Positions 5,927 to 41,292 are shown, counted from the first letter of the stretch. The stretch: DNA of 64,000 nt from an uncultured Gammaproteobacteria bacterium (GCA_964551135.1 CAZKAT010000005.1:198522-262521); one strand, 5' to 3'. The notes: generated by a model from the letters alone, not told the origin. Numbers and translations: made by a program.

Positions 5927-5954
5927 ATCCAAGTTTAGTTAACTTAAAACCTAG

Positions 5955-6641
5955 TTAATCTATCCAACCTTGTTCTTTTGCATAAGCCTTAAGTTTATCG
6001 AAATTAGACATGGTTTCTTTAATATAATTCAACTCAAAAATTCTTGAACCTGGAGGTATGTCTTTAATAGCGAGATCAAAAAAATCTAAGAATTCTGTTA
6101 CAAGTTCTTTTTCATCTACGCAATAATAAGCCACACAAGTCCTACCCTCTATAACAAGATCATCATGATCATTATTGTTCTTTGTCATTGCTTCTATCAA
6201 AAAATTAATATCCTGAATAGTTTCTATTCTATATGTTCCATCATCATTATAGGGCGCTCCTAATTTCTCTTGACCGTAAAATCCAAATGAAGCATAGAAA
6301 TTAGCTTGATACGGATTTCTTATAACTGTTAATTTAAGTCCATAGGCTTCCTCATAATACTCGGAAAAAACAAACTTACTTAGGTCATCTTGGTCATTAT
6401 TTATAAAAAACTGTATTAAACACATTATGCAAAATATTGCACAAGAAACATAATAACCATGACCTACCATAGTTAAAGCTTTGCCGTCGTATTCACGTTC
6501 CCATGCGAATTGGCCATAATTAGGTATGTTAGAATCACAGGGTTTTTCTCTATTAGTAATTTGAAAGAAGGGTTCCCTATCGTAATTTTTAAAATAACCA
6601 TTAACTACATCGATAGGTTTTTTACGAGTTATATTAAACAT
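5955..6641 (-). CDS. Hypothetical protein co-transcribed directly downstream of the giant gene. It may be a partner or immunity-like protein for the giant protein's C-terminal domain.
   Basis: Its start codon (6641..6639) is separated from the giant gene's TAA stop (6645..6643) by one nucleotide. No recognisable motif. It has one hydrophobic segment (YYVSCAIFCIMCLIQFFI). Confidence 0.5.
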   Translation of the reverse strand: MFNITRKKPIDVVNGYFKNYDREPFFQITNREKPCDSNIPNYGQFAWEREYDGKALTMVGHGYYVSCAIFCIMCLIQFFINNDQDDLSKFVFSEYYEEAYGLKLTVIRNPYQANFYASFGFYGQEKLGAPYNDDGTYRIETIQDINFLIEAMTKNNNDHDDLVIEGRTCVAYYCVDEKELVTEFLDFFDLAIKDIPPGSRIFELNYIKETMSNFDKLKAYAKEQGWID

Positions 6642-24318: not shown

Positions 24319-24666
24319 ATGGTACAAGTAATAAGTAAACCTTGGGGTAAGGAAGAAGTAATAGAAATTAATGATAAGTATATGATGAAGAAACTTACTA
24401 TGCATAAAGGGCATAGATGTAGTATTCAATACCATAATCATAAGAAAGAAACTATTTATGTACTTGAAGGAATTTTAAATATTTATATTGGTAATAGCGT
24501 TGAAACTCTCACTAAGAAACAGTTTCATCCAGGTGAATCTATAACCATTAGTCCTGGTATTGTACATAGGATGGAAGCTGAATTGGGAGATGCTGTCTAT
24601 CTTGAAGCTTCTACTCCAGAAATGGACGATGTGGTTCGTCTAGTTGATGACTATAAACGCAATTGA
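24319..24666 (+). CDS. Cupin-domain protein (mannose-6-phosphate-isomerase-like or sugar-epimerase-like small cupin).
   Basis: PWGKEEVIE...HKGHRCSIQYHNHKKETIYVLEG...GIVHRMEA has the two-His cupin motifs. It ends with a TGA stop that overlaps the TTG start of the next gene. Confidence 0.6.
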   Translation: MVQVISKPWGKEEVIEINDKYMMKKLTMHKGHRCSIQYHNHKKETIYVLEGILNIYIGNSVETLTKKQFHPGESITISPGIVHRMEAELGDAVYLEASTPEMDDVVRLVDDYKRN

Positions 24667-26237
24667 GCTATAAAGTATTAATTCCTACTGCCGGTACTGG
24701 GTCGCGCTTAGCTGATCTTACTAAAAATATAAATAAATCTCTGGTTGCTATTGCTAATAAACCCTGTATCTCACATATTGTAGAAAAATTTCCTAAAGAG
24801 ATAGTGATTGTTATTGCTCTTGGTTATAAGGGTGAACTAGTTAAAGAGTATTTAGAATTAGCTCATTATGATCGTAAGTTTGAGTTTGTAGAAGTAAGTC
24901 CATATGAAGGTGAAGGATCAGGATTAGGTTTGAGCGTGCTTAGATGTAAAGAATATTTGCAATGTCCTTTTGTTTTCTGTTCTTGTGACACCATTGTGGA
25001 TGAAGAGATAGCAGCTCCAGATAGTAATTGGATGGCTTATGCTCAGATAGATGGTCCTGTAGATCAATACCGCACTGTTCTAGTAGAGTCTGGCAAAGTC
25101 TTAAAATTATTAGAGAAGGGAAACAAGGAAAAGAATATTTATCCCTATATAGGACTTGCTGGAATCCATGACTATAAGAGCTTTTGGCAAGCTATGGAAG
25201 CTGGTGATAATGAGGCTATTACTATTGGTGAGAGTTATGGGTTAAGACAATTAGAAAATATTCATGCTTATAAGTTTACTTGGCACGATACTGGTAATCT
25301 TGAGGCTTTAAACAAGGTTCGTGATAAATTTCATGATCTGGATGGTCCTAATATATTAGAAAAACCTACAGAGGCAATTTGGTTTGCTAATGATAGGGTA
25401 ATTAAATTTAATACAGATACTAAATTTATTTCCGACAGAGTCAAACGTACTCAGGTTCTGGGTGATTTTGTGCCGAAAATTATCCAAGCTACAGAACATA
25501 TGTACTGTTATAGAGAAGTCCAAGGCGAAGTACTTTCTAAGATTATCAATTTAAAAATTTTCGAAAACTTACTTAATTATTCTCAAAAATTTTGGAACTC
25601 AACTCCAACTAAACCTAAAAAATTAAGTCCAGAAAAACAAAAATATTTTAAAGATATCTGCACTGATTTCTATAAGATCAAAACATTTCAAAGAGTTGAG
25701 CAATATTACAAAACTTTTGGCAATACTGACAAAGAAGAAAGTATTAATGGTATAAAACATCCAAGCACTAAAACTTTACTTGAAAACCTAGACTGGGACT
25801 GGATTAGCAATGGACTACCTGGTAATTTTCATGGTGATTTTCATTTTGAGAATATTTTATATGATAAAGATGCTCACAAGTTCACTTTTCTTGATTGGAG
25901 ACAAAATTTTGGTGGCGAGATTGAATATGGAGACGTCTATTATGATTTGGGTAAGCTAAATCATGGCATAATCGTTTCCCATGAATTAATAGCAAAAGAC
26001 TTATATGAGGTTAGCATTAATGGTAATGAAGTTAGATATGACCTACATCGTAAGCAGATTTTAGTAGAATGTGAGAGATTCTTTAAAGAATATTTAGAAG
26101 CTAATAGCTATGATTATCAGAAAGTCTATGTAATGACGGCACTAATCTATCTTAATATTGCAGCATTACATCATTATCCTTATTGTCATTTGCTTTATTA
26201 TTTAGGTAAGAGCATGTTGGCTAAGGCTGCGGACTAG
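24663..26237 (+). CDS. Bifunctional N-terminal nucleotidyltransferase fused to a C-terminal APH/ChoK/AmgK-like kinase.
   Basis: N-terminal LIPTAGTGSRLADLT is the canonical AGxGxRL nucleotidyltransferase motif. C-terminal HGDFHFENILYD...FLDWRQNFGG has the Brenner HGDxxxxN motif plus the DW metal-binding segment. It uses a TTG start at 24663 overlapping the upstream TGA stop. Confidence 0.7.
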   Translation: MSYKVLIPTAGTGSRLADLTKNINKSLVAIANKPCISHIVEKFPKEIVIVIALGYKGELVKEYLELAHYDRKFEFVEVSPYEGEGSGLGLSVLRCKEYLQCPFVFCSCDTIVDEEIAAPDSNWMAYAQIDGPVDQYRTVLVESGKVLKLLEKGNKEKNIYPYIGLAGIHDYKSFWQAMEAGDNEAITIGESYGLRQLENIHAYKFTWHDTGNLEALNKVRDKFHDLDGPNILEKPTEAIWFANDRVIKFNTDTKFISDRVKRTQVLGDFVPKIIQATEHMYCYREVQGEVLSKIINLKIFENLLNYSQKFWNSTPTKPKKLSPEKQKYFKDICTDFYKIKTFQRVEQYYKTFGNTDKEESINGIKHPSTKTLLENLDWDWISNGLPGNFHGDFHFENILYDKDAHKFTFLDWRQNFGGEIEYGDVYYDLGKLNHGIIVSHELIAKDLYEVSINGNEVRYDLHRKQILVECERFFKEYLEANSYDYQKVYVMTALIYLNIAALHHYPYCHLLYYLGKSMLAKAAD

Positions 26238-28434
26238 GCAATGCTTGTGTTGTGGCATATATGGCTATAGCTTTATCGGATTTAAGCAATAGTTCCCTGG
26301 CTTTCCCTAAATCAAATTGGGATTGTTCTCTACTTGGAAAAATGAACTTACCATGTTCAGAGTCGAATTGATGGAATTCTCTCGTGGCATCTTGGTAACC
26401 AAGTATCCAAACATAATCGTCATTTGCATATTGATTAATTTTTTCTGTTGTGGCAACAAATTTATACAATCGATACTCGTAAGGTGCTTTATCTGGTATC
26501 TTATCTACTAATTTGAATAAGTTCGGATCTTCAAGCCTTTTCTCTGCTGCCTTAGATAAGGCATTGTTTTTATGAATTAAAATAAAATCTACTCTCAATT
26601 CCTCTAATAGTCTAGGGTTCAAAGTATAAAGAGCTGTTTTTTGCGTAGTATATTCAGGCTTAAGTAATACTCCACCTATATCATAGAACCCTGCGATAAG
26701 CGGACAATCATAAGCCCATGGGATTTGATCTTCGTCATAATGTAGTATTACTCTGCCAGATCTTTGATTAGACTTGAGCATTTTAACTAAGCTTCTTTCA
26801 GTCTTGTTGAATCGATATCCAGTTATCGCAAATCTCTCATTTGGGATGAAATTTGCTAAGCCAGGTAATAAAGAAATTACAAGGCAAACAGGTAAAATGA
26901 ATCGTAGAATTTTTCTCTTGCTGAAAAATTTAAATTCTTTTTCTAAAGCATATAAGCTTATTGCAACAAAAATCATTGCATAAAGCTTAGCTGGGAATAG
27001 GAACCGAGTTAATTCAATAGGTGCAATGCAAAATTCAAAAAGGAAAACTGGAGCAAGGCTGACTAGAGAAGATAGCATTAAAAGTTTTTGTATGAAACTT
27101 AATGATCGTTTTTTGTACCCCCAAATAAATAGAAATATGACTAAGGCTAAGAGGATCATGAAACCAAATTCTCTAAAGGATAAAGAAGAAAACAAAGGTA
27201 CTTCGAATTTATATCTGCCAGCCCTTTCTTCGTAACTTTTGCCTAAGCTAAATAAATACTCGGGCTTATAGAAATAACTTAAATAGCGTAGATAGCCTAC
27301 AGTCCAAGTTAAGTGTGGTTTAAAGCTCATAGCTTCAATACCGTTGATTTTAGATTGACTGCCAGTGAACGTAAGGAGTTTTCCAAGACAAATCATTACG
27401 AAAAATATAACTGTCGGGTTTTGAAAAATTGTTTGAATTTTATTGATGCTTTGTATACTGAAATTAAATAGGAATTTTATTACAAAATAACTAGCTCCTA
27501 GTGTTAATAAGTAGGCTGGGAAAATAAAATAAGACATAAAGGAAACACCTAGAACAGATAAGTAGAAATAGAAGTTTTGTTGTTGATTAGATTCTAATTG
27601 AATGGTCTGTAAAATCAATATGAGTAGATATACTAGACCAAAGAGTATAGGTAGGCTATTAGAACAGCCAGATAAAGCATCAGTTGAAACTTGAGAATTC
27701 ATTAGCCAATCTTTAATGAATTCAAAAAGTTCATATTGCTTCATATTCAATATTTCCCGTACAAGAAAGTCCAGTGAATTAATTGAAGTGAATAATATTA
27801 TTGAAATGCAGGCAAGTAATGAATATTTTTTATTTTCAGCGTCAGAATTAATAATTTTGAAAAGTAATATGGGCAGTAAGAAAGCTGCTATGGCTAATTG
27901 AGCTCCATTTAATGTAAAAGGATCAATATTCTTAGCAAATATTTGAAAGAAAGCACCCACAAGATCAATACCATAATGATAAAAGTTAAAAACTATATCC
28001 TTATTTATTAGAAGTCTAGGAGGGTAATAATCATTCATCGCTATATTTGCCGAATATGCCAGATGTTGTGCGTCACCAATATTCATGAGCTGATTGCGAA
28101 GAAAGCATAATAAGGATAGAAGCATAGAGACTAGTATTAGGATGATCTCGCCTAATTCTGGTTTATTGATTGCAAATGTATTACGATAATTTTTCAGAGC
28201 GAAAACGGCTAAAACTAGCATTGGTATTAAAACAAAATACATAGCTTGCGTGAAGCTGTGTATTAATAAGGCAAGTAAATGCGAAGCTAATATGAATTGC
28301 GATAAGCCAATTAAAATAGAGAGACAAATGAAACTAATTAGTGAACTCTTGAGGTTAGAATTGGATTTTTTATAAATCCAAGCCCCATTGATAAAGATCA
28401 GTCCTAGGACTAGTATTAGGACTATAGAGCTCAT
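26221..28434 (-). CDS. Large polytopic membrane protein (737 aa) with a C-terminal soluble domain. Putative GT-C-like glycosyltransferase or polymerase, one of the paralog family.
   Basis: Many hydrophobic helices in the first ~500 aa. Loop motif NDYYPPRLLINKDIVFNFYHYGIDLVG. The C-terminal domain NPRLLEELRVDFILIHKNNALSKAAEKRLEDPNLFKL is collinear with the 30103..32400 product. Confidence 0.5.
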   Translation of the reverse strand: MSSIVLILVLGLIFINGAWIYKKSNSNLKSSLISFICLSILIGLSQFILASHLLALLIHSFTQAMYFVLIPMLVLAVFALKNYRNTFAINKPELGEIILILVSMLLSLLCFLRNQLMNIGDAQHLAYSANIAMNDYYPPRLLINKDIVFNFYHYGIDLVGAFFQIFAKNIDPFTLNGAQLAIAAFLLPILLFKIINSDAENKKYSLLACISIILFTSINSLDFLVREILNMKQYELFEFIKDWLMNSQVSTDALSGCSNSLPILFGLVYLLILILQTIQLESNQQQNFYFYLSVLGVSFMSYFIFPAYLLTLGASYFVIKFLFNFSIQSINKIQTIFQNPTVIFFVMICLGKLLTFTGSQSKINGIEAMSFKPHLTWTVGYLRYLSYFYKPEYLFSLGKSYEERAGRYKFEVPLFSSLSFREFGFMILLALVIFLFIWGYKKRSLSFIQKLLMLSSLVSLAPVFLFEFCIAPIELTRFLFPAKLYAMIFVAISLYALEKEFKFFSKRKILRFILPVCLVISLLPGLANFIPNERFAITGYRFNKTERSLVKMLKSNQRSGRVILHYDEDQIPWAYDCPLIAGFYDIGGVLLKPEYTTQKTALYTLNPRLLEELRVDFILIHKNNALSKAAEKRLEDPNLFKLVDKIPDKAPYEYRLYKFVATTEKINQYANDDYVWILGYQDATREFHQFDSEHGKFIFPSREQSQFDLGKARELLLKSDKAIAIYATTQALPSPQP

Positions 28435-28435
28435 T

Positions 28436-30073
28436 TCAAATCTTTTCCTTTCTTAACTTAGCAACTCTAAGAGCTATGAACAATAGCATGAAATGTATGA
28501 ATTGTAATCTATATCTTGGTTCACACATGGTTATTAGAATTGGGAAGAATGCAAAATATAGAGCTGAAATTAAGACTATCAATTCAAAAATATCAAATTG
28601 ATGAGTTTTATAGAGATTCAATAAGTACACTATCAAAGCAATTAGAAAAACAGGTAAAATAACCCAAATCCATGGGGTGAATGCAAATAGTCTTTGCCAC
28701 CAAGGTGAGAGACCTTCTACCTTATGCCAAAAGCCATAAGGAGTATCCATATTAACCATAACTAAATATTTATCACTTGGATCCATTTTGAAATAACTAA
28801 AGAAACTATGTGCTTTAGAAAGCTGGTTCTTTTCTATATGTATAACCTGCGCCTCTGAGTGAGCTAATTTGGGATCTAGGTTACTTGTAAGGCTGAAGGG
28901 AACTAGTGTGAATTGTATCGGATTAAATCCAACGTTAGGTCTGATAGAGGACTCATAAACAAAAAGTCCTAGGTCTTCTTTTGCAAACATATTTACCATT
29001 GAAACTCTGAAAATTCTTTTTAAGGTTTTAATTGGTTGTCCTAAGGAAAGATCAAGGAAGTATTCAGTGCAGATCTTAGACCATTCATTAGGAGGAATGG
29101 CTGCTTGAGTATAAGGATGTATTATTCTCCCTTCCCTGCCAGCAACACTGATTCTGGATATCGCTAAATAGAATGGTGATGTAACAGAATTAGTATCGTT
29201 AATAGCAAACTCTTGTTTGAATTTATCCGTAGTGTTAATGAATATATCAGTTAACCAGGGATGCCGAGTTTGAGTTCTGGAGTAGATCATATCTTCCGTT
29301 AAAGCCCAGAGTAGAACACCAGCGCCTGAACGGGCAGCTTCATTGGTGGAGACATCAAAAATCTTAGATTGAGAGTAATTGAAACAACAGATTGGCCATT
29401 TGACAACATAGCTACATGAATAGAAAACAATAGCTGCCAAAATAAACTTGCTGATTTTTTTCTTTAATAGAAAATATAATCCATATAAACCAATCACTAT
29501 TGTGATTGACAGTATCCATAGATCAGAAATCGGTTTGGTAAGGGAAGATAGTCCAGCAGAAAATCCTGCGCTAGCAGCATAGATCCAAAAGAATACTGGA
29601 TTGGAATTATAGAAAATTTCTTGTATTAGTTTAATAGTAAGTAATAAGAAAAATACATGAAAAGCTTCTGGCATAACCACTTGTTCCATATATAGGAGAG
29701 CTGGATTGAGAGAAAATATTATACTTGCTATTAACGCTAATATTCGATTAGAGTTAGCTTGGCAAAGTATCCAGTAGATTAATATAGTGGAAGCTACTCC
29801 ACAAAGTTTATGTAATATGATTACTTCACTAACATCCCCTGTATGGTTAATTTGTATAAAATAATTTATTATCCGATTAAATAATCCAAAGTTAATGCTA
29901 GAAAGTAACCAGCCAAAATTACGTTCATTGATAATTTGCAGAGGGACAAAGTATTTAGGCGAATCTGCTACAAACAATGTAGGTACGTTGGAGCTAAAGC
30001 GTAAAATCAAACTAAATCCAGCAAAGATGAGGAAAGGTAAATGATTATTTAGTATTGTTTTGTTTTTGCTCAT
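28436..30073 (-). CDS. Polytopic membrane protein, putative GT-C-fold glycosyltransferase (ArnT / PMT-like).
   Basis: About 12 predicted transmembrane helices, with a first extracytoplasmic loop carrying VADSPKYF and a large loop in the middle. The layout resembles GT39/GT83 enzymes. Its stop abuts the start of the 737-aa paralog gene (28434/28436). Confidence 0.4.
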   Translation of the reverse strand: MSKNKTILNNHLPFLIFAGFSLILRFSSNVPTLFVADSPKYFVPLQIINERNFGWLLSSINFGLFNRIINYFIQINHTGDVSEVIILHKLCGVASTILIYWILCQANSNRILALIASIIFSLNPALLYMEQVVMPEAFHVFFLLLTIKLIQEIFYNSNPVFFWIYAASAGFSAGLSSLTKPISDLWILSITIVIGLYGLYFLLKKKISKFILAAIVFYSCSYVVKWPICCFNYSQSKIFDVSTNEAARSGAGVLLWALTEDMIYSRTQTRHPWLTDIFINTTDKFKQEFAINDTNSVTSPFYLAISRISVAGREGRIIHPYTQAAIPPNEWSKICTEYFLDLSLGQPIKTLKRIFRVSMVNMFAKEDLGLFVYESSIRPNVGFNPIQFTLVPFSLTSNLDPKLAHSEAQVIHIEKNQLSKAHSFFSYFKMDPSDKYLVMVNMDTPYGFWHKVEGLSPWWQRLFAFTPWIWVILPVFLIALIVYLLNLYKTHQFDIFELIVLISALYFAFFPILITMCEPRYRLQFIHFMLLFIALRVAKLRKEKI

Positions 30074-30102: not shown

Positions 30103-32400
30103 ATGCTCACTCCTTGTTTATTTATAGCCTACTTAGCTATTCTCCTTATCTTCGGAGATATATTGATTAGTAGATCTTTCGCCACATTAAATTATCCAGC
30201 TAAATTGAGTTCTCGAATTGCAGTAGCATTGCCATTTGGTTTAGCATTCCATTTATTTACTGCTCATATTTTGGCTCTTTTTGCTACACATAGTTATAGA
30301 ATTGCAGCTTGTTTGAGTATTGGTTTAATGTTGCTGATAATTATTATTGCCGAGTTTAAACAATATTATTCATTAAATAACTTAGGTCAAGATTTATTAT
30401 CCTTTGGTAAGTCTAAGGAAGCTTGGGTAATTGTTCTTGGATTATTGATTGCAGTTAGTTGCGGTATCAGAGGACATTTAACTGACTCAGACAATACTCA
30501 TATACCTTGGATGGCAGGCATAGTACTGAATAATGACTATCCGCCATTACTGCCAGTAAATCCAGAATATAATTTGAGTTTTTATCATTATGGAATTGAT
30601 CTTCTCAATTCATCAATTTTCTCAATTACAGGAGCACTTCCTTGGGATGCTATTAGTATGCAAGTTGGCATTGGAGCTTTCTCAGTGTTTCTTGTAATCT
30701 ATGCTATTTATGATTATTTTTTCAAATCATTTGTCATAACTTTTCTGGCAACTTTATTTACTACTTTCTTTACTTCAATAATGGGACTTGAGTTTATTTA
30801 TAAATTTGCTAGTAAGATTTCAGAATGGGGCGTGAAGGGTTTCTTCTATTATTGGCAGCAAGCTAGCTTACCTGCTATTGGACATATACCTTATAATCTA
30901 GTGCTTATATCTCAAGATATGGGAACGGCTCCTTTATTGGTAATACTTCTGTTCTTACTGATTCTTAAAGATCAAACAGATTATAAATTTAGTTTTTTCA
31001 AAATAGGATTGCCAGTTCTGTTACTTTCTTTTCTGACTTATTTTTGTTATGAAGCATATTGGTATGTGAGTTTTGCTGGTCTAGGATTACTTTTTACTTT
31101 AGAAGTACTTGTTGCATTGTTTAGAAATCAGTTTGGTTCAATCCAAGTCCGTCAAAAACTATTAAATTTCTTTTTCTTTATGGCTTGCTATAGCATTGCG
31201 AAGTTTTTAACTTTCAGATCAGGGTTTTCTTCATTCGATAATATTAATGCTCTAGTGATTCATCCAACACTATATTGGGATCACTTTGCGATGCAGTTCT
31301 TGAATTTCTTCCCGCCACCAATGGATAATCATACTGTATTACCAGTGCGTGATTATGTTTCAGGGAAGATTATTCTCAATGTTTACTTATGGTCAATGGT
31401 TAGTTTTCGTAACTGGGGATTTTTGACTATAGTGGTGATTCTACTCAGTGCCTATAAATTATTTAAGAAACAATTTGATAACAGTTTTGTATTTGTGTTT
31501 GCAGGTGCAGCGGGATTGTTTGTGCCATTTATTGTGGACTATGTTGTCAAGCCAAGTGAGACTTATAGATTCCCAGCTTGGACTATGATCATGTTTCTAT
31601 TCTTTGTTGTTATTTCAGTAATCAAATTAGTACAGGAAAATACTAAGTTGCAGAGCTTATTAAAGCCTCTGCCTATAAGGATTTTATTGATAGTCAATTT
31701 GTTGTTTTTCCTATTGCCTGGAGTGGCATCTATAGTTCCTTCCTTCGGACATGTGGCATATGGCGTGGATGATAGGCTTACTAAACCACAGAAATTAGCC
31801 TTAGAAGTAATGATCAAGATTCATAAGCCTGGCGAGATAGGCTTAGCTGCTAGACCTTTTTACTGGATGAGTGATATCGCTAATGTTGCAGGATTCTATG
31901 GTGTTGGAGGACAGATGTCTAAGATGGATATGCTTACAAGGAAAACAGCTATTAATTTAATGAATCCAATCTTGCTTCAGGAATTAAAAGTAAATTATAT
32001 ATTGGTAGATAAGAATGATGTCCTGAGTGAAGCAGCTTTGGAGCGTTTAAAGAACCCAAGCTTGTTTGAAGAGATTACTAAAGTGCATGAACTTAATCCA
32101 GATTGGCATTTCTATCGTTTTGTAAATCAGATAGGCTATGATCCAACTCAGATAAGTTTATTAAAGGATGAGTACGATTGGGTTGTGGGGTCTAAGTTTG
32201 GTTATGAATTTAAACCATTAGTGTTTGAGAATAACGTAATGTACATTGGTGAAGAGAGAAGGGAATTAGAAGGTATAGTGAAGAACTATAAGCAGAAACT
32301 TAAAGTGGACAATATACCAGTTGCTATGTGGCTTGTTGCTGAAGCTATAACAAAACCAGAGCTAGAAGCTGTATTTGAGAGTCAGAGACAGCGGCAATAG
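30103..32400 (+). CDS. Large polytopic membrane protein (765 aa), paralog of the 26221..28434 product.
   Basis: NNDYPPLLPVNPEYNLSFYHYGIDLLN and the C-terminal NPILLQELKVNYILVDKNDVLSEAALERLKNPSLFEE are collinear with the 737-aa paralog. It is transcribed divergently from the 28436..30073 gene. Confidence 0.5.
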   Translation: MLTPCLFIAYLAILLIFGDILISRSFATLNYPAKLSSRIAVALPFGLAFHLFTAHILALFATHSYRIAACLSIGLMLLIIIIAEFKQYYSLNNLGQDLLSFGKSKEAWVIVLGLLIAVSCGIRGHLTDSDNTHIPWMAGIVLNNDYPPLLPVNPEYNLSFYHYGIDLLNSSIFSITGALPWDAISMQVGIGAFSVFLVIYAIYDYFFKSFVITFLATLFTTFFTSIMGLEFIYKFASKISEWGVKGFFYYWQQASLPAIGHIPYNLVLISQDMGTAPLLVILLFLLILKDQTDYKFSFFKIGLPVLLLSFLTYFCYEAYWYVSFAGLGLLFTLEVLVALFRNQFGSIQVRQKLLNFFFFMACYSIAKFLTFRSGFSSFDNINALVIHPTLYWDHFAMQFLNFFPPPMDNHTVLPVRDYVSGKIILNVYLWSMVSFRNWGFLTIVVILLSAYKLFKKQFDNSFVFVFAGAAGLFVPFIVDYVVKPSETYRFPAWTMIMFLFFVVISVIKLVQENTKLQSLLKPLPIRILLIVNLLFFLLPGVASIVPSFGHVAYGVDDRLTKPQKLALEVMIKIHKPGEIGLAARPFYWMSDIANVAGFYGVGGQMSKMDMLTRKTAINLMNPILLQELKVNYILVDKNDVLSEAALERLKNPSLFEEITKVHELNPDWHFYRFVNQIGYDPTQISLLKDEYDWVVGSKFGYEFKPLVFENNVMYIGEERRELEGIVKNYKQKLKVDNIPVAMWLVAEAITKPELEAVFESQRQRQ

Positions 32401-32407
32401 ATTTACT

Positions 32408-33271
32408 CTATTTAACTTTTTTCAGTAAGAATTCGTTGTTTAATAGTCCATTATTACAGATCAAATTCTCTAAGTTAAAACCTTTCTTTTGTAAGAATAG
32501 AAATATCTCTGCAACCGTAGCAAACTCATAAGGATAGCCACCTAGCCAATCAATGATATCTGTTTTCCAGCTCATGCCTCTAAAGTTAATATGATTCTTT
32601 ATTTGTTTGAATGGATTTGTGAAAGTAGCTAAATAGAAGCAGATTAAAGCAGTCATGGCTAAGTAGTCAATAAAAAATTGAAGAAATTTAGGTAAGCTAG
32701 TATAGAATTTCTTTTCGGCAAGCCACATATAAGAATTACCAAACCTGAAATCTGGATAAATATTAAAACCATCAGATTTATTATAGATAGCAATGCACAT
32801 ATATCCATCTGCTTTAACAAGTCTTGCTGCATGATCTATGGCTGTCCACATATTGCCTGTGTGATGTAATACTCCCCATGAATAAACAAAATCATAAGTG
32901 CCAAGGCTATTTACAAAGCTTTCATCTAGTATAGATCCATGAGTTATTTCCCAGTTCTCTGGATTGCCTTCTGCTTCTCTCAATCTCCGGCAACATTCGA
33001 CTGAATTTTCATCAATGTCTAAGCTTAGAATTTTTTTCGCTCCAAGTCTATGAGCAACTAAAGAGAACAGACCGCTGCCGCAACCTATATCAACAAAAGT
33101 TTTCCCTTGAATATTTTCTTCTCCACAGAATTTCTTAGTGGCTTCGATGGCATATTCTATAACGGTATCATTAAGGCAATTATCAAGGTAATGTGACCAA
33201 TTCTCACCAAAACGGAAAAAATTCTTGGGTTTACGTATAGATTCGTTTTTGGTAATTGTCTGAGTATTCAT
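32408..33271 (-). CDS. Class I SAM-dependent methyltransferase.
   Basis: Motif I FVDIGCGSGLFSL and the acidic motif II SLDIDEN. Confidence 0.7.
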   Translation of the reverse strand: MNTQTITKNESIRKPKNFFRFGENWSHYLDNCLNDTVIEYAIEATKKFCGEENIQGKTFVDIGCGSGLFSLVAHRLGAKKILSLDIDENSVECCRRLREAEGNPENWEITHGSILDESFVNSLGTYDFVYSWGVLHHTGNMWTAIDHAARLVKADGYMCIAIYNKSDGFNIYPDFRFGNSYMWLAEKKFYTSLPKFLQFFIDYLAMTALICFYLATFTNPFKQIKNHINFRGMSWKTDIIDWLGGYPYEFATVAEIFLFLQKKGFNLENLICNNGLLNNEFLLKKVK

Positions 33272-33327
33272 TTTCTAGTTTAGTTTATCATTTTTGTGAA
33301 GTAATAAGTGCCATCTTCTCCAAAATC

Positions 33328-34224
33328 CTACCTCTTTGCTACACACATTAGCCCAGTACTGTTCCCTATAAGTCCCTGTAAAAATGCCACTGGGATAAAA
33401 GCCAGACTTAATGGAACCATATAGAATGACATACCATTTCTTAATTGACTATGAAATAACTTAGTATCTTGAAGCATATTCTGTATGGATATAGCCCACT
33501 GAGCTGGATCTAGGTCTGTATAAAATTTAGTAGTAGAAAATTTGCAATTATCAGCTATGAGTTGAAGATTTTGCTTATTGAATAGATGTATATGTCTTGG
33601 AATATGTAATCCTGCCCAATATTTACCAAAGATTGCAAACTCAATTGCTTTAGTATTAGGAGTGAATAAGATTATTTGTCCAGAAGGATTAAGTTTAGCG
33701 TAGCAATTCTTCATAACGGCTATTGGATCAAGGAAGTGTTCTATAACATTATTGAGCAAGATGATATCAAACTTCTCTGCAAAAGGAATTTCCTGTTCTA
33801 CATTGGCTATTTTGACTTGAACCCCATTGTCCATCAGCCTTGCAGCTGCAGCACTACTAAAATCACAGCCGTATAAATTCTGATAACCTAGATCTTTAAA
33901 TGCCATTAACAACTCTCCATTGCCATAGCCAATTTCTAGAATTTTAGAATCCTTGTTGAAAAACTTAGTGAGTTTTTTTGCTTGGTTGCGGAATTTTATT
34001 TTTTTAAGCTGAGAAAAAACTCCTGAGCCGATTGGCAAATAATTCCTATACTCAGATGGATAAAAGCTGCTAATGTCATTAAGCTTAGGAAGCGGCTTTT
34101 GGTATATTAATCCGCAGTTACTACATTGATAGAGGTCAATTGGACTGCAGGTTTCATACTCCCAGTCCTTAAGTCCTGTAAATTTAATGGTGTCTTGATT
34201 GCAACTACAGACAATACAGCTCAT
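33328..34224 (-). CDS. Class I SAM-dependent methyltransferase with an N-terminal Cys4 zinc-ribbon.
   Basis: N-terminal CIVCSC...CSNCG (CxxC...CxxC). Motif I ILEIGYGNGELL and motif II GCDFS. Confidence 0.7.
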   Translation of the reverse strand: MSCIVCSCNQDTIKFTGLKDWEYETCSPIDLYQCSNCGLIYQKPLPKLNDISSFYPSEYRNYLPIGSGVFSQLKKIKFRNQAKKLTKFFNKDSKILEIGYGNGELLMAFKDLGYQNLYGCDFSSAAAARLMDNGVQVKIANVEQEIPFAEKFDIILLNNVIEHFLDPIAVMKNCYAKLNPSGQIILFTPNTKAIEFAIFGKYWAGLHIPRHIHLFNKQNLQLIADNCKFSTTKFYTDLDPAQWAISIQNMLQDTKLFHSQLRNGMSFYMVPLSLAFIPVAFLQGLIGNSTGLMCVAKR

Positions 34225-34914
34225 CTAATGATTCGCAACTCCTGCCTTGTAATCGACGTTATATTCATTATTAGGTATGACTACTGTACTAACATCAGGT
34301 CTAAACATACCTTCATTTTTAATTGTTGGTAGAGAAGGCACTGGCGGCTCAAAAATATATGGACCAGGATTGAGATCAGCAGGTTTAGTTTGTTTCTTAT
34401 TGATCCAGTCTATGCCATGGAAATCCTTAAATCCTAGAGTATGAACTTTCCATCTTCTGTTTCTCATTGGCACATCTTCAGCCCAAGCATTCTTTAACCA
34501 AGAACTGAATACGACTCTAAATGCAGGTTGAAGAAAACCCATCCAGCTAGGTACATGCATATTGTAATAAATTTTCATTCTTGATCTATTATTAGGCAGA
34601 TCAAAGAAGTGTACTTCCATATCTAGCATGCCATAGAGATCCTTATGAACAGTTCTCATAATGTGTGGTTCAGGCATAAATTGGAAACCTATCCCTTCGT
34701 TCTCAAAAGGTACTACAGGAATCTTCGCTCTTCTGTAAACTAGTGCCCAATCATCTCTTTCAGCTAAGATTCTTGCTTCTCTATAAAGCTTCTGGTGAGT
34801 ACCAAGTAAGTGTTCATGGTCATAATAATTCCACATTATTACTTCCTTCGGGCAATCTTGTTCTAGCTCTAATTCTAAAGTAAGTTTAGTTCTACCATTG
34901 TCGTTTTTTGCCAT
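34225..34914 (-). CDS. Rieske-type non-heme-iron oxygenase catalytic domain, encoded separately from its Rieske domain.
   Basis: The mononuclear iron motif D-x2-H-x4-H is present as YYDHEHLLGTH (D32, H35, H40). The ATG lies 5 nt after the stop of the Rieske-domain ORF, in a different frame. Confidence 0.55.
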   Translation of the reverse strand: MAKNDNGRTKLTLELELEQDCPKEVIMWNYYDHEHLLGTHQKLYREARILAERDDWALVYRRAKIPVVPFENEGIGFQFMPEPHIMRTVHKDLYGMLDMEVHFFDLPNNRSRMKIYYNMHVPSWMGFLQPAFRVVFSSWLKNAWAEDVPMRNRRWKVHTLGFKDFHGIDWINKKQTKPADLNPGPYIFEPPVPSLPTIKNEGMFRPDVSTVVIPNNEYNVDYKAGVANH

Positions 34915-34919
34915 AAAAA

Positions 34920-35318
34920 TTATCCTAATAAGTTTACATAAACTTTATTACCATCAACCTTAAGTTGATACTGTCTTAAAGGCAAGCCTGGATTAGTTTT
35001 ACATGAACCATCAGCACAGGAGAATTGCCAATTATGCCAAAGACAAGTAAACACTCCATCCTTAGCCTTACGATAGCCTACTGGTCCACCAAAATGAGGG
35101 CAAATATTGCTGATAGCTTTCAATTCACCTTCATGTTTATAAAGCAAAATATCGTGATCATTAATCCAACGTGATAATTGTCCATGTGGCTCAAGTTCGT
35201 CTATAGTTGCCAAGAATTGAAAATCTTGTCCCTGTTGGTTTTGATTTTTAACTGTTAATAATGTATCTTCGCTAACCATTTCAATCCAGGATTGTAACAC
35301 AGCAGGCTTAATTTTCAA
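34920..35318 (-). CDS. Rieske [2Fe-2S] domain protein, the N-terminal half of the split oxygenase.
   Basis: CPHFGGPV...(17 aa)...CLWHNWQF gives the canonical CxH-x15-17-CxxH Rieske ligand pattern. Confidence 0.8.
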   Translation of the reverse strand: MKIKPAVLQSWIEMVSEDTLLTVKNQNQQGQDFQFLATIDELEPHGQLSRWINDHDILLYKHEGELKAISNICPHFGGPVGYRKAKDGVFTCLWHNWQFSCADGSCKTNPGLPLRQYQLKVDGNKVYVNLLG

Positions 35319-35337
35319 TCAACCTTAGGGATATATG

Positions 35338-37098
35338 TTAAGACCCATTCTTTATTTTATCAAGATCGATAATGGCATAGCCAATTCTTTTCTCAGCCAT
35401 AAATCTTTCTAAGAAAAAAGATTCTCCTGGATTGAGTTTAACTAGTTCTTGAGATAAAGCATTATATGGTTCTAAGTAGACAGGATTATTAATATAAGGT
35501 TGTTGATAGAAATTATATAAAGCCAGAAAATAATTTATGTGATTGGCATCAGCAAGTTTAACAAACTCATCTCTAGACTTGGCATAAGTCATTCTTATAG
35601 CTACTTCATTACGTCTTCTGATTTCAGCAAGAGATTCATGAGTATAAGCCATGCTACGTTCGTAATCTATAAACACTTTGCGTTTACTAGTAATTGAGAC
35701 TGTACTAATATCTGGCAATAGTGGATGGGCGGCAATTAGACTATCTTTAGGAGTTTGTGACAAGACTTCATTAACAGCTGGAGTAACAGAAACATACCTA
35801 GCATGATAAAAGGTACGAGTTATATTCCAATAATAGCCCGTACTAATCAATAAAGCTAGTACAAAAACCTTATCAGCAATTGACTTTGGTAATTCATGAG
35901 ACAGCTGCCATAGCCAGATGCCAACAATTAGAGTTAAGCATATAACAGAAAGTAATAAAGAAGGTACCGCTAGATATCTACTGGGTAAGTATAATACTGG
36001 GAACAGTAATTGTGATGCTATATATAAGGAAATAGCAGCATATAGTAGTGTTGCTGGACTAGAACTAAATATCACAGAAAAAGAATTGTAGAAAATATTT
36101 TTGGTCTTACTGTTTTTTTTAGTATTTATGCCAACTAGTACGAAAAATAAATAAAACAAGCTAGCTACAAAAGCATATTTAATAATAGAGCTAATGGGAA
36201 GGTAACCAATGCCTAGTCCCCAATGTTCATTTTGCCACCAACTACCATCCCAAACAGATGAACCAAATATCGGATGACGTCCTCCAGGATTGAATTCTGG
36301 TAAAGCTTTCATCTCTGCTACAGTGAATGATGTGCCAACACCTTGAGTTTTAATATCTTTGAAAATTACTAGATAAGTAAACGCTACTACTGCTGCATTA
36401 AATAACCAGAGTAAAAATTCTTTGCGTTTAAAATCTATAAAATTAAGACGATATTTAATAATGCCATCAAAAAACTCCATGGCGAAGCAAATTAAGAAAG
36501 CATGCGGACTAACAAAAATACTGATTAGGCATAGTAACCCTGCTGTAATATTTTTGTTAATAAGTTTAAAATACATATAACTCAAGATGCCTAGCCACAC
36601 TAGTGAACGTGAGTGTGCTGCAGAAAGGTGATCAGTACACCATGTAGTCGTTACTAGTGCAGTTGAGAAACATAGAGCCCAGAGATCTATTAATGCAATG
36701 TTAGTACCAAGAATTTTTACTTGATTTAAATTCTTGGTGAAACTTTCATAATGATTAAGTAATGCTTGAAAGAATAAAAACGCAGAAGCTCCTGTTAGGA
36801 TGGCCATGATTAAGGCTAAGAATTTTGAGAAGAAAATTAAGCTTGGAGTAAACAAAGGTGCAAGTTTGTATACCAAAAAAAGTAAAGGAACTCTATAAGT
36901 ATGAGATTCATACATAGGTGCAAAGAAATCATTTTTAAATAATTCTGGATCCCAAAGGCGCCATGTCCAAAACATGCTTTGTCTGAAATCATCCTGTACT
37001 ACCAGCTCATCACCAATAATAGGGCCTAAGATTTGCCAGCTAATAACAAATGCAATGATTGAAGCTAAAATAACATAGTATATTTGAGGTTTTTTCAT
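35338..37098 (-). CDS. Polytopic integral membrane protein (hypothetical). First gene of the oxygenase and methyltransferase operon.
   Basis: 586 aa with more than 10 hydrophobic helices and no recognisable catalytic motif. There is a 19-nt gap to the Rieske gene downstream. Confidence 0.45.
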   Translation of the reverse strand: MKKPQIYYVILASIIAFVISWQILGPIIGDELVVQDDFRQSMFWTWRLWDPELFKNDFFAPMYESHTYRVPLLFLVYKLAPLFTPSLIFFSKFLALIMAILTGASAFLFFQALLNHYESFTKNLNQVKILGTNIALIDLWALCFSTALVTTTWCTDHLSAAHSRSLVWLGILSYMYFKLINKNITAGLLCLISIFVSPHAFLICFAMEFFDGIIKYRLNFIDFKRKEFLLWLFNAAVVAFTYLVIFKDIKTQGVGTSFTVAEMKALPEFNPGGRHPIFGSSVWDGSWWQNEHWGLGIGYLPISSIIKYAFVASLFYLFFVLVGINTKKNSKTKNIFYNSFSVIFSSSPATLLYAAISLYIASQLLFPVLYLPSRYLAVPSLLLSVICLTLIVGIWLWQLSHELPKSIADKVFVLALLISTGYYWNITRTFYHARYVSVTPAVNEVLSQTPKDSLIAAHPLLPDISTVSITSKRKVFIDYERSMAYTHESLAEIRRRNEVAIRMTYAKSRDEFVKLADANHINYFLALYNFYQQPYINNPVYLEPYNALSQELVKLNPGESFFLERFMAEKRIGYAIIDLDKIKNGS

Positions 37099-37146
37099 AG
37101 TGCTCGCATAGTTATCAGTGAATCATTATATAATTAAGCCTCGAGA

Positions 37147-39066
37147 ATGTGCGGAATAGTAGGGTTTACAAGTTTTAAGAATCTGGGTTTTGATAAAGAA
37201 AAAATCCTAACTGCTATGTGCCTTAGTATTGTGCATAGAGGGCCAGATGATGCAGGTATAGAGATCCAGGAGAAGATAAATCTCGGATTTAGAAGGTTAA
37301 GTATTGTTGGTTTAGAAACTGGTCATCAACCGATGTTTTCTTTTGATAAGAAACAGGTCATTGTATTCAACGGTGAAATCTATAATTATAAAGAGTTGAG
37401 AGCTTCATTAGAGAAGCAGGGTTTTCCTTTTAAGACTAATTCAGATACTGAGGTAATTATTAACCTTTATAAAAAATTGGGGCTTGATTTTGTAAAGCAA
37501 CTCAATGGTATGTTTGCTTTTGCTCTCTGGGATATTGATGAAGAGAGGCTCATACTAGCTAGAGATAGAATGGGAGAGAAACCACTCTTCTATCAACGCA
37601 AGGGTAATGAAGTTTTCTTTGCTTCTGAGCTTAAAGCACTGGTTAAGCATCCACATTGCTCGCGTGAGCTATCTAGTGAGGGTCTTAATAAGTATCTTAC
37701 TTATGAATATGTGCCAACGCCCTACACTATCCTTGATCAAGTATGGAAATTAGAAGCAGGTGAGATGGCTGTTATTACTGAACATGAAATGCATAAGAGT
37801 TTTTACTGGCAGCATCCTAATTATGGTTTCCAGGAAGGTACTGTTCATACTGAAAAAGAGGCTATCGAACAGATAGATTCCTTACTTGCTGATTCTATTA
37901 AAATACGTATGCAAGCTGATGTACCTGTAGGAGTGCTGCTTAGTGGTGGTATAGATTCTAGCTTGGTGACTGCAATTGCATCGAAAGTGAAAACCAGTAG
38001 CGAAAGAATTAAAAGTTTCTCTATATATTTTGATGAAGCTAGTTATGATGAATCAAGTTATATCAAGAAGATCGTTTCCAAATATGATCTAGAACATTAT
38101 TCTCAAACAGTTACCTCTAAAGATATGCTTTCTGTCTTTGGTCAGCTCGGTCGTATTATGGATGAGCCTATGGCTGATGCCTCTATAGTACCTACTTACT
38201 TCTTGTCACAGATGACCGCTAAAAATGTGAAGACTGTTATGGGCGGTGACGGTGCAGATGAAATGTTTGCTGGCTATCCAACTTATAGTGCTAATAAATT
38301 AGTGCAAATCTATAATATTATTCCTTATGAGCTTCGCTCTAGATTAACTACCTTATTTAGTAAGGCTCAAGGTTCAATAATCCCCATATCTAATAAAAAT
38401 ATTGCTTTGGACTTTAAGCTTAAGCAGTTTTTTAGAGGTGCAGGTGTGGCTAGTGAAATCCGCTTCTTTAGATGGATGGGTGGCTTTCTTGAGCAAGAGA
38501 AAAAGAACATTCTCAGTGCTCACTATCAGAATAAAATTCTTGGTCAGCTTACCTACTCTGATCTTAATAGATATTTGTCTAGAACTAATATTCATAATGA
38601 AACAGATAGATTACTTTACTTGAGTCAGAAGCTTTATTTAACAGATGATATTTTGGTTAAGTCTGATCGTGCTAGCATGCAGAACTCTCTAGAAATTCGT
38701 TCACCATTTCTAGATCATCGCTTAGTTGAATATGTTTCAATGTTGCCTGATAGGTTTAAATTAAAGACCCTACAAACTAAATATATATTAAAGAAAGTTG
38801 CTGAAAAATATCTTCCAGATGAGGTTATTTATAGACCGAAGAAAGGCTTCGGTATTCCTATAACTCAATGGCTGAGAGAAGATCTTAAGGAGCCAATGCT
38901 GGATTTATTGTCTAAGGATAGACTGGAATCTCAAGGTATTTTTGAATATAGTGGTATTAAGAAGCTTATAGATGATCATCTTGAGCATAAAACTAATAAT
39001 CGTAAATTGCTCTGGGCTTTACTAAGCTTGCAATTATGGATAGAAGAATATAAGCCTAATTTTTAA
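37147..39066 (+). CDS. asnB: Asparagine synthetase (glutamine-hydrolysing), AsnB-like amidotransferase.
   Basis: N-terminal MCGIVGF (class II GATase Cys2 nucleophile). SGGIDSS PP-loop motif. Full-length at about 640 aa. Confidence 0.9.
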   Translation: MCGIVGFTSFKNLGFDKEKILTAMCLSIVHRGPDDAGIEIQEKINLGFRRLSIVGLETGHQPMFSFDKKQVIVFNGEIYNYKELRASLEKQGFPFKTNSDTEVIINLYKKLGLDFVKQLNGMFAFALWDIDEERLILARDRMGEKPLFYQRKGNEVFFASELKALVKHPHCSRELSSEGLNKYLTYEYVPTPYTILDQVWKLEAGEMAVITEHEMHKSFYWQHPNYGFQEGTVHTEKEAIEQIDSLLADSIKIRMQADVPVGVLLSGGIDSSLVTAIASKVKTSSERIKSFSIYFDEASYDESSYIKKIVSKYDLEHYSQTVTSKDMLSVFGQLGRIMDEPMADASIVPTYFLSQMTAKNVKTVMGGDGADEMFAGYPTYSANKLVQIYNIIPYELRSRLTTLFSKAQGSIIPISNKNIALDFKLKQFFRGAGVASEIRFFRWMGGFLEQEKKNILSAHYQNKILGQLTYSDLNRYLSRTNIHNETDRLLYLSQKLYLTDDILVKSDRASMQNSLEIRSPFLDHRLVEYVSMLPDRFKLKTLQTKYILKKVAEKYLPDEVIYRPKKGFGIPITQWLREDLKEPMLDLLSKDRLESQGIFEYSGIKKLIDDHLEHKTNNRKLLWALLSLQLWIEEYKPNF

Positions 39067-40308: not shown

Positions 40309-41292
40309 ATGCGTCACGCGAAAAAAATTTTACTCACAGGTTGCAATGGTTTTATTGGAACCAATTTTCTTAATCTTATTTATAAATCTTATCCTGATCT
40401 GGAGATTTTTAATATTGATAATTTAGATTTTGATATATCTAAAAACAATCATAAGGATAAAGATCCAGATAGATATCATTTCGTTCATGGTTCTATTTTG
40501 GATAAAGAATTATTGAATAAAATATTTGTTGCTAATAGATTTGATCAGATCATTAATTTCGCTGCTAACTCGCATGTGGATAATTCTATAACTAACCCAG
40601 AAGCTTTTACTGTTAACAATGTACTTGGTACTCAACGCTTATTAGATATGGCTCTTAAGTTTGAGCCTGAATTATTCTTGCATATTAGCACTGATGAAGT
40701 TTATGGTTCTTTAGATTTCAATTCTCCCTCTACTAAAGAAGATGCTCCTATACAACCTAATAATCCTTACTCAGCTTCTAAGGCTGCTGCTGATTGCCTT
40801 GTAAGATCTTATAATAGAACCTTTAAATTACCTTGTATTATAACTCGTTCTAGTAATAATTTTGGACCTTATCAGTATCCCGAGAAATTTATTCCAGTAG
40901 TTATAAGCAATGCTCTTAATAATCAATCCATCCCTGTCTATGGCACTGGAAACAATGTCAGAGACTGGATTTATGTAGAGGATAATTGTAGAGCTGTAGA
41001 TCTAGTGCGTAATAAAGGACAGATTGGAGAGATCTATAATATTCCTGGACATGAAGAAGTGCAGAATATTGATCTGGCTAAAACTATTCTCCAGGTTTTA
41101 GGTAAGGATGCATCTCTGATTAAGTTTGTAGAAGATCGTAAGGGACATGATCTGCGTTATTCTATGGATGGTTCTAAACTAAAAGCTCTTGGCTTTAAAC
41201 TAGAATCGAGTTTTGAAAATGATTTAGCTAAGACTATTGAATGGTATAAGCTTAATAGCCATTGGCTTAAAGTGAAGCCTGTTTTAGTGTAA
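40309..41292 (+). CDS. rfbB: dTDP-glucose 4,6-dehydratase (extended SDR).
   Basis: ILLTGCNGFIGTNF Rossmann loop, HISTDEVYGS and YSASKAAAD (the TDE...YxxxK catalytic residues typical of RmlB). Confidence 0.8.
   Translation: MRHAKKILLTGCNGFIGTNFLNLIYKSYPDLEIFNIDNLDFDISKNNHKDKDPDRYHFVHGSILDKELLNKIFVANRFDQIINFAANSHVDNSITNPEAFTVNNVLGTQRLLDMALKFEPELFLHISTDEVYGSLDFNSPSTKEDAPIQPNNPYSASKAAADCLVRSYNRTFKLPCIITRSSNNFGPYQYPEKFIPVVISNALNNQSIPVYGTGNNVRDWIYVEDNCRAVDLVRNKGQIGEIYNIPGHEEVQNIDLAKTILQVLGKDASLIKFVEDRKGHDLRYSMDGSKLKALGFKLESSFENDLAKTIEWYKLNSHWLKVKPVLV

Follow-up and report, generated by a model that had tools for sequence, protein, structure and literature searches.

Rieske oxygenases (ROs) are defined and annotated as single alpha chains that carry both metal centres. 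Split ROs are nevertheless already known. In the NdmCDE N7-demethylase of Pseudomonas putida CBB5, the subunit NdmC has no Rieske cluster, the cluster sits on the reductase NdmD, and the GST-like protein NdmE is required; this system was described as the first reported split-off of an oxygenase Rieske domain (PMC4408171). The chlorophyllide a oxygenase (CAO) of Micromonas pusilla is presented as a natural two-polypeptide Rieske oxygenase in a passage of PMC9615114 that cites Kunugi et al. 2013. Here we analyzed a 64,000-nt stretch of DNA from an uncultured Gammaproteobacteria bacterium (GCA_964551135.1 CAZKAT010000005.1:198522-262521; "the window", with positions counted from its first letter), in which a small Rieske protein and a 229-aa putative mononuclear-iron protein are encoded by adjacent open reading frames (ORFs).

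The pair belongs to five tightly packed ORFs on the minus strand (32408-37098), all of which were found where an earlier note on this DNA had placed them (Table 1). That note had read the pair as a Rieske protein followed by an RO-type mononuclear-iron catalytic domain, either naturally split or recently broken by a nonsense or frameshift event. Our analysis supported the pairing, with two polypeptides encoded in the order Rieske, then catalytic. We consider it likely that the two proteins together make up a Rieske non-heme-iron oxygenase that is constitutively produced as two polypeptides and whose substrate is a cytoplasmic sugar precursor.

Predicted metal sites of the two proteins

The 132-aa ORF matched the Pfam Rieske domain (PF00355, E = 2.5e-16) and contains the ligands C73-P-H75-x16-C92-L-W-H95 (132-aa numbering; coordinates 35034-35102). 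The CPH...CLWH ligand set pointed out in the earlier note is thus borne out by the four residues C73, H75, C92 and H95 together with a significant Pfam match. The C-x-H-x15-17-C-x2-H motif of Rieske proteins is present, but on a polypeptide separate from the catalytic domain. We found 308 homologs, and all 120 listed are single-domain proteins of 107-154 aa. Given the homolog lengths and the public gene call of 119 aa, which begins at M14 (ATG 35279), the true start is probably this codon rather than the TTG at 35318. Many JGI records of the Rieske homologs (P0132-P0220) are named "methionine sulfoxide reductase heme-binding subunit" or "sulfoxide reductase heme-binding subunit YedZ", which looks like propagated mis-annotation.

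The 229-aa protein matched neither Pfam nor NCBIfam. It contains the sequence YYDHEHLLGTH, that is, D32-x2-H35-x4-H40, which had been proposed as a mononuclear iron motif. The D-x2-H-x4-H motif alone is too short for significance. In a 65-sequence superfamily alignment with a mean column identity of 19%, however, the sole invariant residues are N29, D32, H35, H40 and D147, and the motif is therefore no chance match; the proposal holds, with three of its residues among these five. A search of 177,635 PDB sequences with the superfamily profile (A2) matched solely GxtA and SxtT. The alignment was in exact register, placing N158, D161, H164 and H169 of SxtT/GxtA onto N29, D32, H35 and H40. In SxtT/GxtA, the facial triad consists of H164, H169 and D280, D161 is the bridge between Rieske cluster and iron, and N158 holds an iron-bound water (PMC7293229). 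D147, which lies in the long C-terminal helix, was paired with D280 by this position and by spacing (107 residues from H40 to D147, 111 from H169 to D280). The 2-His-1-carboxylate triad and the bridging Asp of RO alpha subunits (N/E-x2-D-x2-H-x4-H ... D) are accordingly both represented.

We modeled the 229-aa protein with AlphaFold2, using 35 homologs (pLDDT 82, pTM 0.77). The modeled topology is that of a helix-grip (SRPBCC) fold, with one beta strand, two alpha helices, six beta strands and a long alpha helix (123-159), as in the catalytic domain of RO alpha subunits. When the model was compared with the PDB by Foldseek, KshA, SxtT and GxtA were retrieved at E about 5e-6. Rieske domain models matched neither the 229-aa protein nor its homologs, and no cysteine is invariant among them. 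Because the fold, the invariant residues and the alignment to known metal sites agree, we conclude that the 229-aa protein is a putative RO-type catalytic subunit with a complete predicted metal site and without a Rieske domain.

Several results speak against this assignment. The A2 E-values for GxtA and SxtT, 0.17 and 3, are not significant alone. In 35 family members searched at E <= 10, no Pfam model of an RO catalytic domain (Ring_hydroxyl_A, PaO, KshA_C, VanA_C, LigXa_C) was matched. An hhalign comparison of the close-family profile (A1) with the single canonical RO found in locus L051 gave no alignment. In Foldseek, metal-free START proteins and polyketide cyclases rank equally high, so that the modeled fold is compatible with an RO but is not diagnostic. 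PDB sequence searches also returned nothing, either by phmmer with the 229-aa protein or by hmmsearch with A1; likeness to alpha-only ROs beyond the metal-site motif was undetectable in the PDB, Pfam and hhalign comparisons.

In another reading, the 229-aa protein is a metal-free START/SRPBCC protein of the ligand-binding or cyclase type, and the Rieske gene beside it says nothing about catalysis. The top Foldseek matches, which include the aromatase/cyclases TcmN, WhiE and ZhuI as well as START proteins, and the lack of any Pfam RO match would fit such a protein. However, the five invariant residues coincide with the RO metal-site set and there are no others, the Rieske gene is an obligatory neighbour, and fusions with a Rieske domain occur in nature (see below). 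We therefore regard a metal-free protein as very unlikely and retain the RO-type catalytic subunit.

The split across phyla and the proposed interface between the chains

We searched 1.84 billion representative proteins with hidden Markov models at a threshold of E <= 0.001. The catalytic family comprises just 176 representative clusters (50% identity), and no N-terminal Rieske domain was present among the best 150 of them. The 128 homologs of the catalytic protein are all 165-245 aa long, and none has a Rieske domain. Hence the arrangement of RO alpha subunits, with the Rieske domain N-terminal to the catalytic domain on one chain, was not found.

We then gathered 62 genomic loci, of which 58 were testable for an upstream Rieske ORF. 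A separate Rieske ORF ends just upstream of the catalytic ORF in 57 of the 58, covering at least six phyla; the loci come from Gammaproteobacteria, Melainabacteria, Acidobacteriota, Planctomycetota, Verrucomicrobiota, Myxococcota and Alphaproteobacteria, including Pelagibacterales (SAR11). The median gap between the two ORFs is 7 nt (range, -8 to +143 nt). In the 57 loci the Rieske gene ends in TGA (25), TAA (23) or TAG (9), the relative frames of the two ORFs are distributed 21/19/17, and the in-frame cases always carry a stop. Across 56 loci, the identity of the Rieske protein to its window counterpart rises and falls with that of the catalytic protein (r = 0.87), and the Rieske protein is the more conserved one, with a median identity of 60% vs 50% for the catalytic protein.

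In the one exception, locus L029 from an Acidoferrales metagenome-assembled genome, the Rieske partner is present (5605-5976) but has CLWR for CLWH, with Arg in place of the second His ligand. This may reflect either a sequencing error or a decayed copy.

At the junction in the window, direct reading confirmed the TAA stop, the 5-nt spacer and the ATG of the 229-aa ORF described in the earlier note. A Shine-Dalgarno-like AGGA (34923-34926) lies within the last Leu-Gly codons of the Rieske gene, 8 nt before the catalytic ATG, and comparable junctions occur in related loci, where a ...GG(A/G) T(A/G)(A/G) stop lies a few nucleotides ahead of the ATG. Translational coupling of the two genes is likely. 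The junction is identical in two independent public assemblies, with 0 mismatches over 2490 and 1619 nt, so the assembly error that the earlier note had asked to exclude is very unlikely. A scan of 32000-37400 for promoters and terminators gave counts no different from those in shuffled controls.

We also considered a single RO gene that was recently interrupted, by mutation or by an assembly or sequencing error. The combined length of the two products (132 + 229 = 361 aa) and the gene order do mimic an alpha-only RO, and the gap is a mere 5 nt. Against this stand the lack of an N-terminal Rieske domain in the homologs and clusters, the separate ORFs in several phyla with all three stops, all frames and variable gaps, the good conservation of both proteins and the agreement of the independent assemblies. 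We thus give a recently broken gene next to no credence, and this half of the earlier proposal is refuted. The earlier note had also suggested that uniformly split orthologs with the same spacing would mark an ordinary two-gene system; the orthologs are indeed uniformly split, as expected of an established two-gene system, whereas the spacing varies. The spread of stops and frames excludes both a recent lesion and conserved recoding. A programmed frameshift or readthrough to a fused protein was likewise ruled out by the even frames and by the stop in every in-frame case. Taken together, the homolog lengths, the separate ORFs, the varied stops and frames and the conservation of both partners indicate that the split is ancient and stable.

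Remote relatives of the catalytic protein were found in other arrangements. For distant stand-alone relatives of ~200 aa (in loci L068 and L069), the gene immediately before the catalytic ORF is again a small Rieske gene, and the two overlap by 4-8 nt. In ~14 representative clusters of 294-338 aa, the match to the catalytic domain is N-terminal, and all five members that were scanned with Pfam have a C-terminal Rieske domain (CPHEG...CPWHG). These fused relatives thus have the order catalytic, then Rieske, the reverse of a canonical RO. In phrase searches of the available papers, none mentioned a C-terminal Rieske domain in a Rieske oxygenase, and searches for a split or missing Rieske domain likewise turned up nothing relevant. 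Being natural fusions, they provide independent confirmation that the Rieske and catalytic modules work together. They sit in nucleotide-sugar clusters, with genes for an NTP-transferase, 4,6-dehydratase, DegT aminotransferase, TPP enzyme, DHQ-synthase-like protein, SDR, GT2 and NeuB. Tandem catalytic-catalytic single chains of 408 and 429 aa also exist (P0249 and P0247). The P0249 tandem (L068, 6687-8227) is preceded by one 105-aa Rieske gene with a 4-nt overlap, and genes for radical SAM, carbamoyltransferase, GT2 and GMC oxidoreductase proteins lie nearby. In L069, the remote family member adjoins a true Methyltransf_13/14 enzyme.

A broader and only tentative proposal, which we hold to be less probable than its negation, is that the family may be a separate, ancient RO lineage in which the modules were never joined in the canonical way, two chains are the default, and the enzymes are dedicated to C-H oxidation of activated sugars for cell-surface glycans. 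If so, fusion came in the reverse order and the RO architecture was assembled more than once. To our knowledge, this chemistry is at present assigned to no Rieske oxygenase in bacteria.

How the two chains meet is a separate question. The best PDB sequence match of the Rieske protein is the small soluble 8hn2 (5e-9), followed by T4moC, CarAc and TodB (1e-5 to 3e-4), with RO alpha subunits at 1e-4 to 1e-3. By sequence, the Rieske protein appears as ferredoxin-like as it is like RO N-terminal domains, or more so; this counts against a fixed two-chain enzyme, and the stable complex therefore stays putative. The small protein could instead be a diffusible Rieske-type ferredoxin, like T4moC, CarAc or TodB, that makes transient contact with its partner and supports the same chemistry without a permanent heteromer. 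The strict adjacency of the two genes, which often overlap, the natural fusions with the catalytic domain, the invariance of the bridging Asp D32 and the higher conservation of the Rieske protein relative to its partner instead suggest a fixed interface. We consider a diffusible ferredoxin unlikely and favor the two-chain oxygenase.

Gene neighbourhood and the possible substrate

Table 1. Coordinates of the features discussed; positions refer to the window unless a locus is named.
Feature	Coordinates	Strand	Remarks
Membrane protein, 586 aa	35338-37098	minus	First gene of the operon
Rieske ORF, 132 aa	34920-35318	minus	From the TTG start at 35318
Rieske/catalytic junction	34915-34926	minus	TTA GGA TAA TTTTT ATG, read directly from the sequence; TAA 34920-34922, spacer TTTTT (5 nt) 34915-34919, ATG 34912-34914
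Catalytic ORF, 229 aa	34225-34914	minus	
Residue N29	34828-34830	minus	Predicted metal site
Residue D32	34819-34821	minus	Predicted metal site
Residue H35	34810-34812	minus	Predicted metal site
Residue H40	34795-34797	minus	Predicted metal site
Residue D147	34474-34476	minus	Predicted metal site
Zn-ribbon class I S-adenosylmethionine (SAM) methyltransferase, 298 aa	33328-34224	minus	
Class I SAM methyltransferase, 287 aa	32408-33271	minus	Last gene of the operon
AsnB-like glutamine amidotransferase, 639 aa	37147-39066	plus	Divergent; Asn_synthase 6.6e-95, GATase_7 1e-47
RmlB-like dehydratase	40309-41292		Pfam scan
Flavin_Reduct-domain protein, 226 aa	42023-42703	minus	PF01613, E = 4.7e-20; ~5 kb from the operon
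Reverse-order relatives (catalytic, then Rieske)	L066 8001-8930; L067 3913-4890		P0326, P0352, P0357, P0376, P0382 and others

The two class I SAM methyltransferases reported downstream of the pair were recovered by Pfam. The 298-aa enzyme, whose start codon abuts the stop of the catalytic gene, matched Methyltransf_23 at E = 1.9e-22 and otherwise generic class I models alone (Methyltransf_11, _12, _25 and _31). Its N-terminal Zn-ribbon cysteines C3, C6, C34 and C37 were kept in 22 of 22 sequences compared. The earlier note had likened the Zn-ribbon of this enzyme to that of sugar C- and O-methyltransferases; the four-Cys ribbon is conserved, but the sugar C-methyltransferase models Methyltransf_13/14 (PF08421/PF08484; TylC3 type) found no match in it, and that part of the comparison is not supported. 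The 298-aa enzyme adjoins the pair in 27 loci and on further contigs and is the most constant neighbour, so that, as judged from these loci, the conserved core is a triad of Rieske protein, catalytic protein and Zn-ribbon methyltransferase. The 287-aa methyltransferase lies outside this core, and in the closest relatives (L001 and L002) it stands beside the AsnB-like gene.

The 586-aa protein encoded by the first gene has about 10 transmembrane segments by hydropathy, followed by a soluble C-terminal domain of about 190 aa. It matched no Pfam model, the GT-C models included, and no NCBIfam model, and its 82 homologs are all unnamed. In its first loop D37 is invariant and D36 is at least 90% conserved. 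An AlphaFold2 model (pLDDT 92.4, pTM 0.92) was compared with the PDB by Foldseek, and the top 24 matches were all GT-C enzymes (DPY19, STT3/PglB/AglB, AftA, Pmt4 and ALG9). GT-C enzymes are marked by an N-terminal multi-transmembrane core with acidic residues in its first external loop, by a soluble domain at the C-terminus and by their fold. All of these are present in the sequence or the model, and the family with its conserved DD (D36/D37) may be an undescribed GT-C family.

Three further large polytopic membrane proteins adjoin the operon, at 26221-28434 (minus, 737 aa), 28436-30073 (minus, 545 aa) and 30103-32400 (plus, 765 aa). The 545-aa protein is the only one of the three with a Pfam PMT match. 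The other two, of 737 and 765 aa, share their matching ORFs in related loci and are apparently paralogs; hhalign among the window's three large membrane proteins detected no relationship.

Around the operon in the window, we found another PMT-like protein, a GT2, two NTP-transferases and an RmlB-like dehydratase; the AsnB-like and RmlB-like genes that had been noted nearby were both identified by Pfam scans. The AsnB-like gene is present in 25 of the 62 loci, from Gammaproteobacteria, Alphaproteobacteria and Acidobacteriota. Recurrent neighbours in Acidobacteriota, Alphaproteobacteria and SAR11 are a GT2 of ~315-340 aa (the ArnC/GtrB size class), GT21, NAD-dependent epimerases/dehydratases, PMT_2 GT-C proteins, LPG_synthase_TM proteins and small EamA-type proteins. 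The glycan context suggested in the earlier note thus recurs in other phyla. The term "island" used there finds no compositional sign, and a horizontally acquired island was rejected because the GC content is flat across the window (0.32-0.40 throughout).

Other ORFs in the window were recorded as well. A single 4220-aa ORF occupies 6643-19305 (minus). The 463-aa protein at 19456-20847 (plus), with PKD, DUF2341 and lectin-like Laminin_G_3 domains, adjoins glycosyltransferase genes. The 524-aa protein at 24663-26237 (plus) has NTP_transferase and APH-type kinase domains and may be a sugar kinase/nucleotidyltransferase fusion.

Judged solely by gene neighbourhood, oxidative and methyl tailoring of a glycan is a plausible role for the triad. 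We consider this role reasonable, and it is strengthened by the recurrence of glycan neighbours across phyla and by the predicted GT-C fold of the first gene product. Three points speak against the proposed oxygenase with a sugar substrate: the Melainabacteria triad is surrounded by genes of a housekeeping type and not by obvious glycan genes, the operon lacks a reductase gene, and no family member has an assigned substrate, product or activity.

With regard to the reductase, the Flavin_Reduct-domain protein is a possible, tentative candidate electron donor. Close homologs of it (E about 1e-87) directly flank the module in L013 (9443-10072) and L058 (1178-1795), and unrelated Flavin_Reduct genes lie within about 7 kb of the module in two further loci.

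With regard to the substrate, the pair could be a genuine two-chain RO that acts as a demethylase or on something other than a sugar, for instance an acyl substituent or a membrane lipid, polyprenyl or otherwise. Among alpha-only ROs, many either remove O- or N-methyl groups (DdmC, VanA, NdmA/B) or have lipid substrates (KshA), the pocket of a helix-grip protein is typically hydrophobic, and the Melainabacteria context would be in keeping with such a role. Yet a methyltransferase as the most constant neighbour fits poorly with demethylation, and both split and fused members occur repeatedly within nucleotide-sugar, GT2 and GT-C gene sets. We judge a demethylase or a non-sugar substrate improbable, and we prefer a sugar precursor.

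For the two-chain oxygenase with a sugar precursor as substrate, we propose the following scheme. Translation of the two proteins would be coupled through the Shine-Dalgarno-like element at the end of the Rieske gene and the 5-nt gap. The small protein is predicted to bind a Rieske [2Fe-2S] cluster through C73, H75, C92 and H95, and H35, H40 and D147 would form the 2-His-1-carboxylate iron site of the 229-aa subunit, with D32 as the likely counterpart of the Asp that bridges Rieske cluster and iron in SxtT/GxtA and N29 as that of the water-holding Asn. The two chains may form a heteromer with a head-to-tail contact between Rieske cluster and iron like that in alpha3 oxygenases, where the cluster lies about 12 A from the neighbouring iron. 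Electrons would pass from NAD(P)H through a reductase encoded outside the operon, possibly the Flavin_Reduct protein, and the iron would activate O2 for hydroxylation of the substrate at a C-H bond. As the neighbourhood suggests, this substrate may be a cytoplasmic sugar precursor, either nucleotide-linked or polyprenyl-phosphate-linked. The product would then be methylated by the Zn-ribbon methyltransferase encoded immediately downstream, and the modified sugar may finally be passed via a polyprenyl-phosphate carrier to a periplasmic acceptor by GT-C enzymes, such as that encoded by the first gene of the operon.

Comparison with known systems

The catalytic protein shares with the alpha-only (alpha3) ROs SxtT, GxtA, KshA and dicamba monooxygenase a helix-grip fold and the N-x2-D-x2-H-x4-H ... 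D pattern with similar spacing, whereas in those enzymes the Rieske domain forms the N-terminal part of the same chain. The 132-aa protein resembles the Rieske ferredoxins T4moC, CarAc, TodB and BphF in size, in its single domain and in its best sequence matches. Unlike the present protein, these ferredoxins feed a partner with its own Rieske or di-iron centre; the partner here has a mononuclear site only, and the small protein must therefore fill the role of the alpha-subunit Rieske domain.

The genomic context resembles three-component lipid-linked glycosylation of the Gtr, Arn and Lgm/Flm types, which combines a polyprenyl-phosphate GT2, a flippase and a GT-C enzyme: ArnC-like GT2 proteins of ~315-340 aa, small EamA-type proteins and PMT_2/GT-C proteins are neighbours, and the first gene of the operon encodes a protein with a predicted GT-C fold. 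We know of no Rieske oxygenase in such systems, and a literature search found no bacterial precedent for the Rieske oxygenation of a nucleotide sugar or O-antigen. For the proposed substrate class, the nearest functional analogy is CMP-Neu5Ac hydroxylase (CMAH), which has a Rieske cluster and acts on a nucleotide sugar; it is an animal, single-chain enzyme whose catalytic part is not a helix-grip RO domain. The pair may point to a step of oxidative tailoring that has so far gone unrecognised in the pathways of lipid-linked glycans.

Being invisible to Pfam and NCBIfam, the catalytic half is labelled "hypothetical" in records, and its Rieske partner is labelled "ferredoxin" or mis-named. Recognising the pair adds a widespread but small, so far unnamed family to the RO superfamily. 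The pair also offers a natural system for inter-subunit electron transfer from Rieske cluster to iron on separable proteins, with the reverse-order fusions as comparators.

As in NdmCDE, the catalytic subunit lacks a Rieske cluster and another polypeptide supplies it. In contrast to NdmCDE, the Rieske protein here is a free protein of 119-132 aa encoded directly upstream, with no reductase fusion: the listed Rieske homologs are free, and neither a reductase domain nor a GST-like domain was found in the eight genes scanned (the operon, the AsnB-like gene and the two upstream membrane proteins). With Micromonas CAO the family shares the two chains. The CAO split, however, is eukaryotic and lineage-specific and arose within the otherwise single-chain PaO/CAO type, whereas the present family is split in every member examined, spans many bacterial phyla and has no PaO Pfam match. 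The family differs from the split ROs already known in five ways: its Rieske protein is free and encoded upstream, the split is universal in the family across bacterial phyla, the fusions that occur are in the reverse order, neither Pfam nor NCBIfam has a model for the catalytic protein, and the genes lie in a glycan-biosynthesis context.

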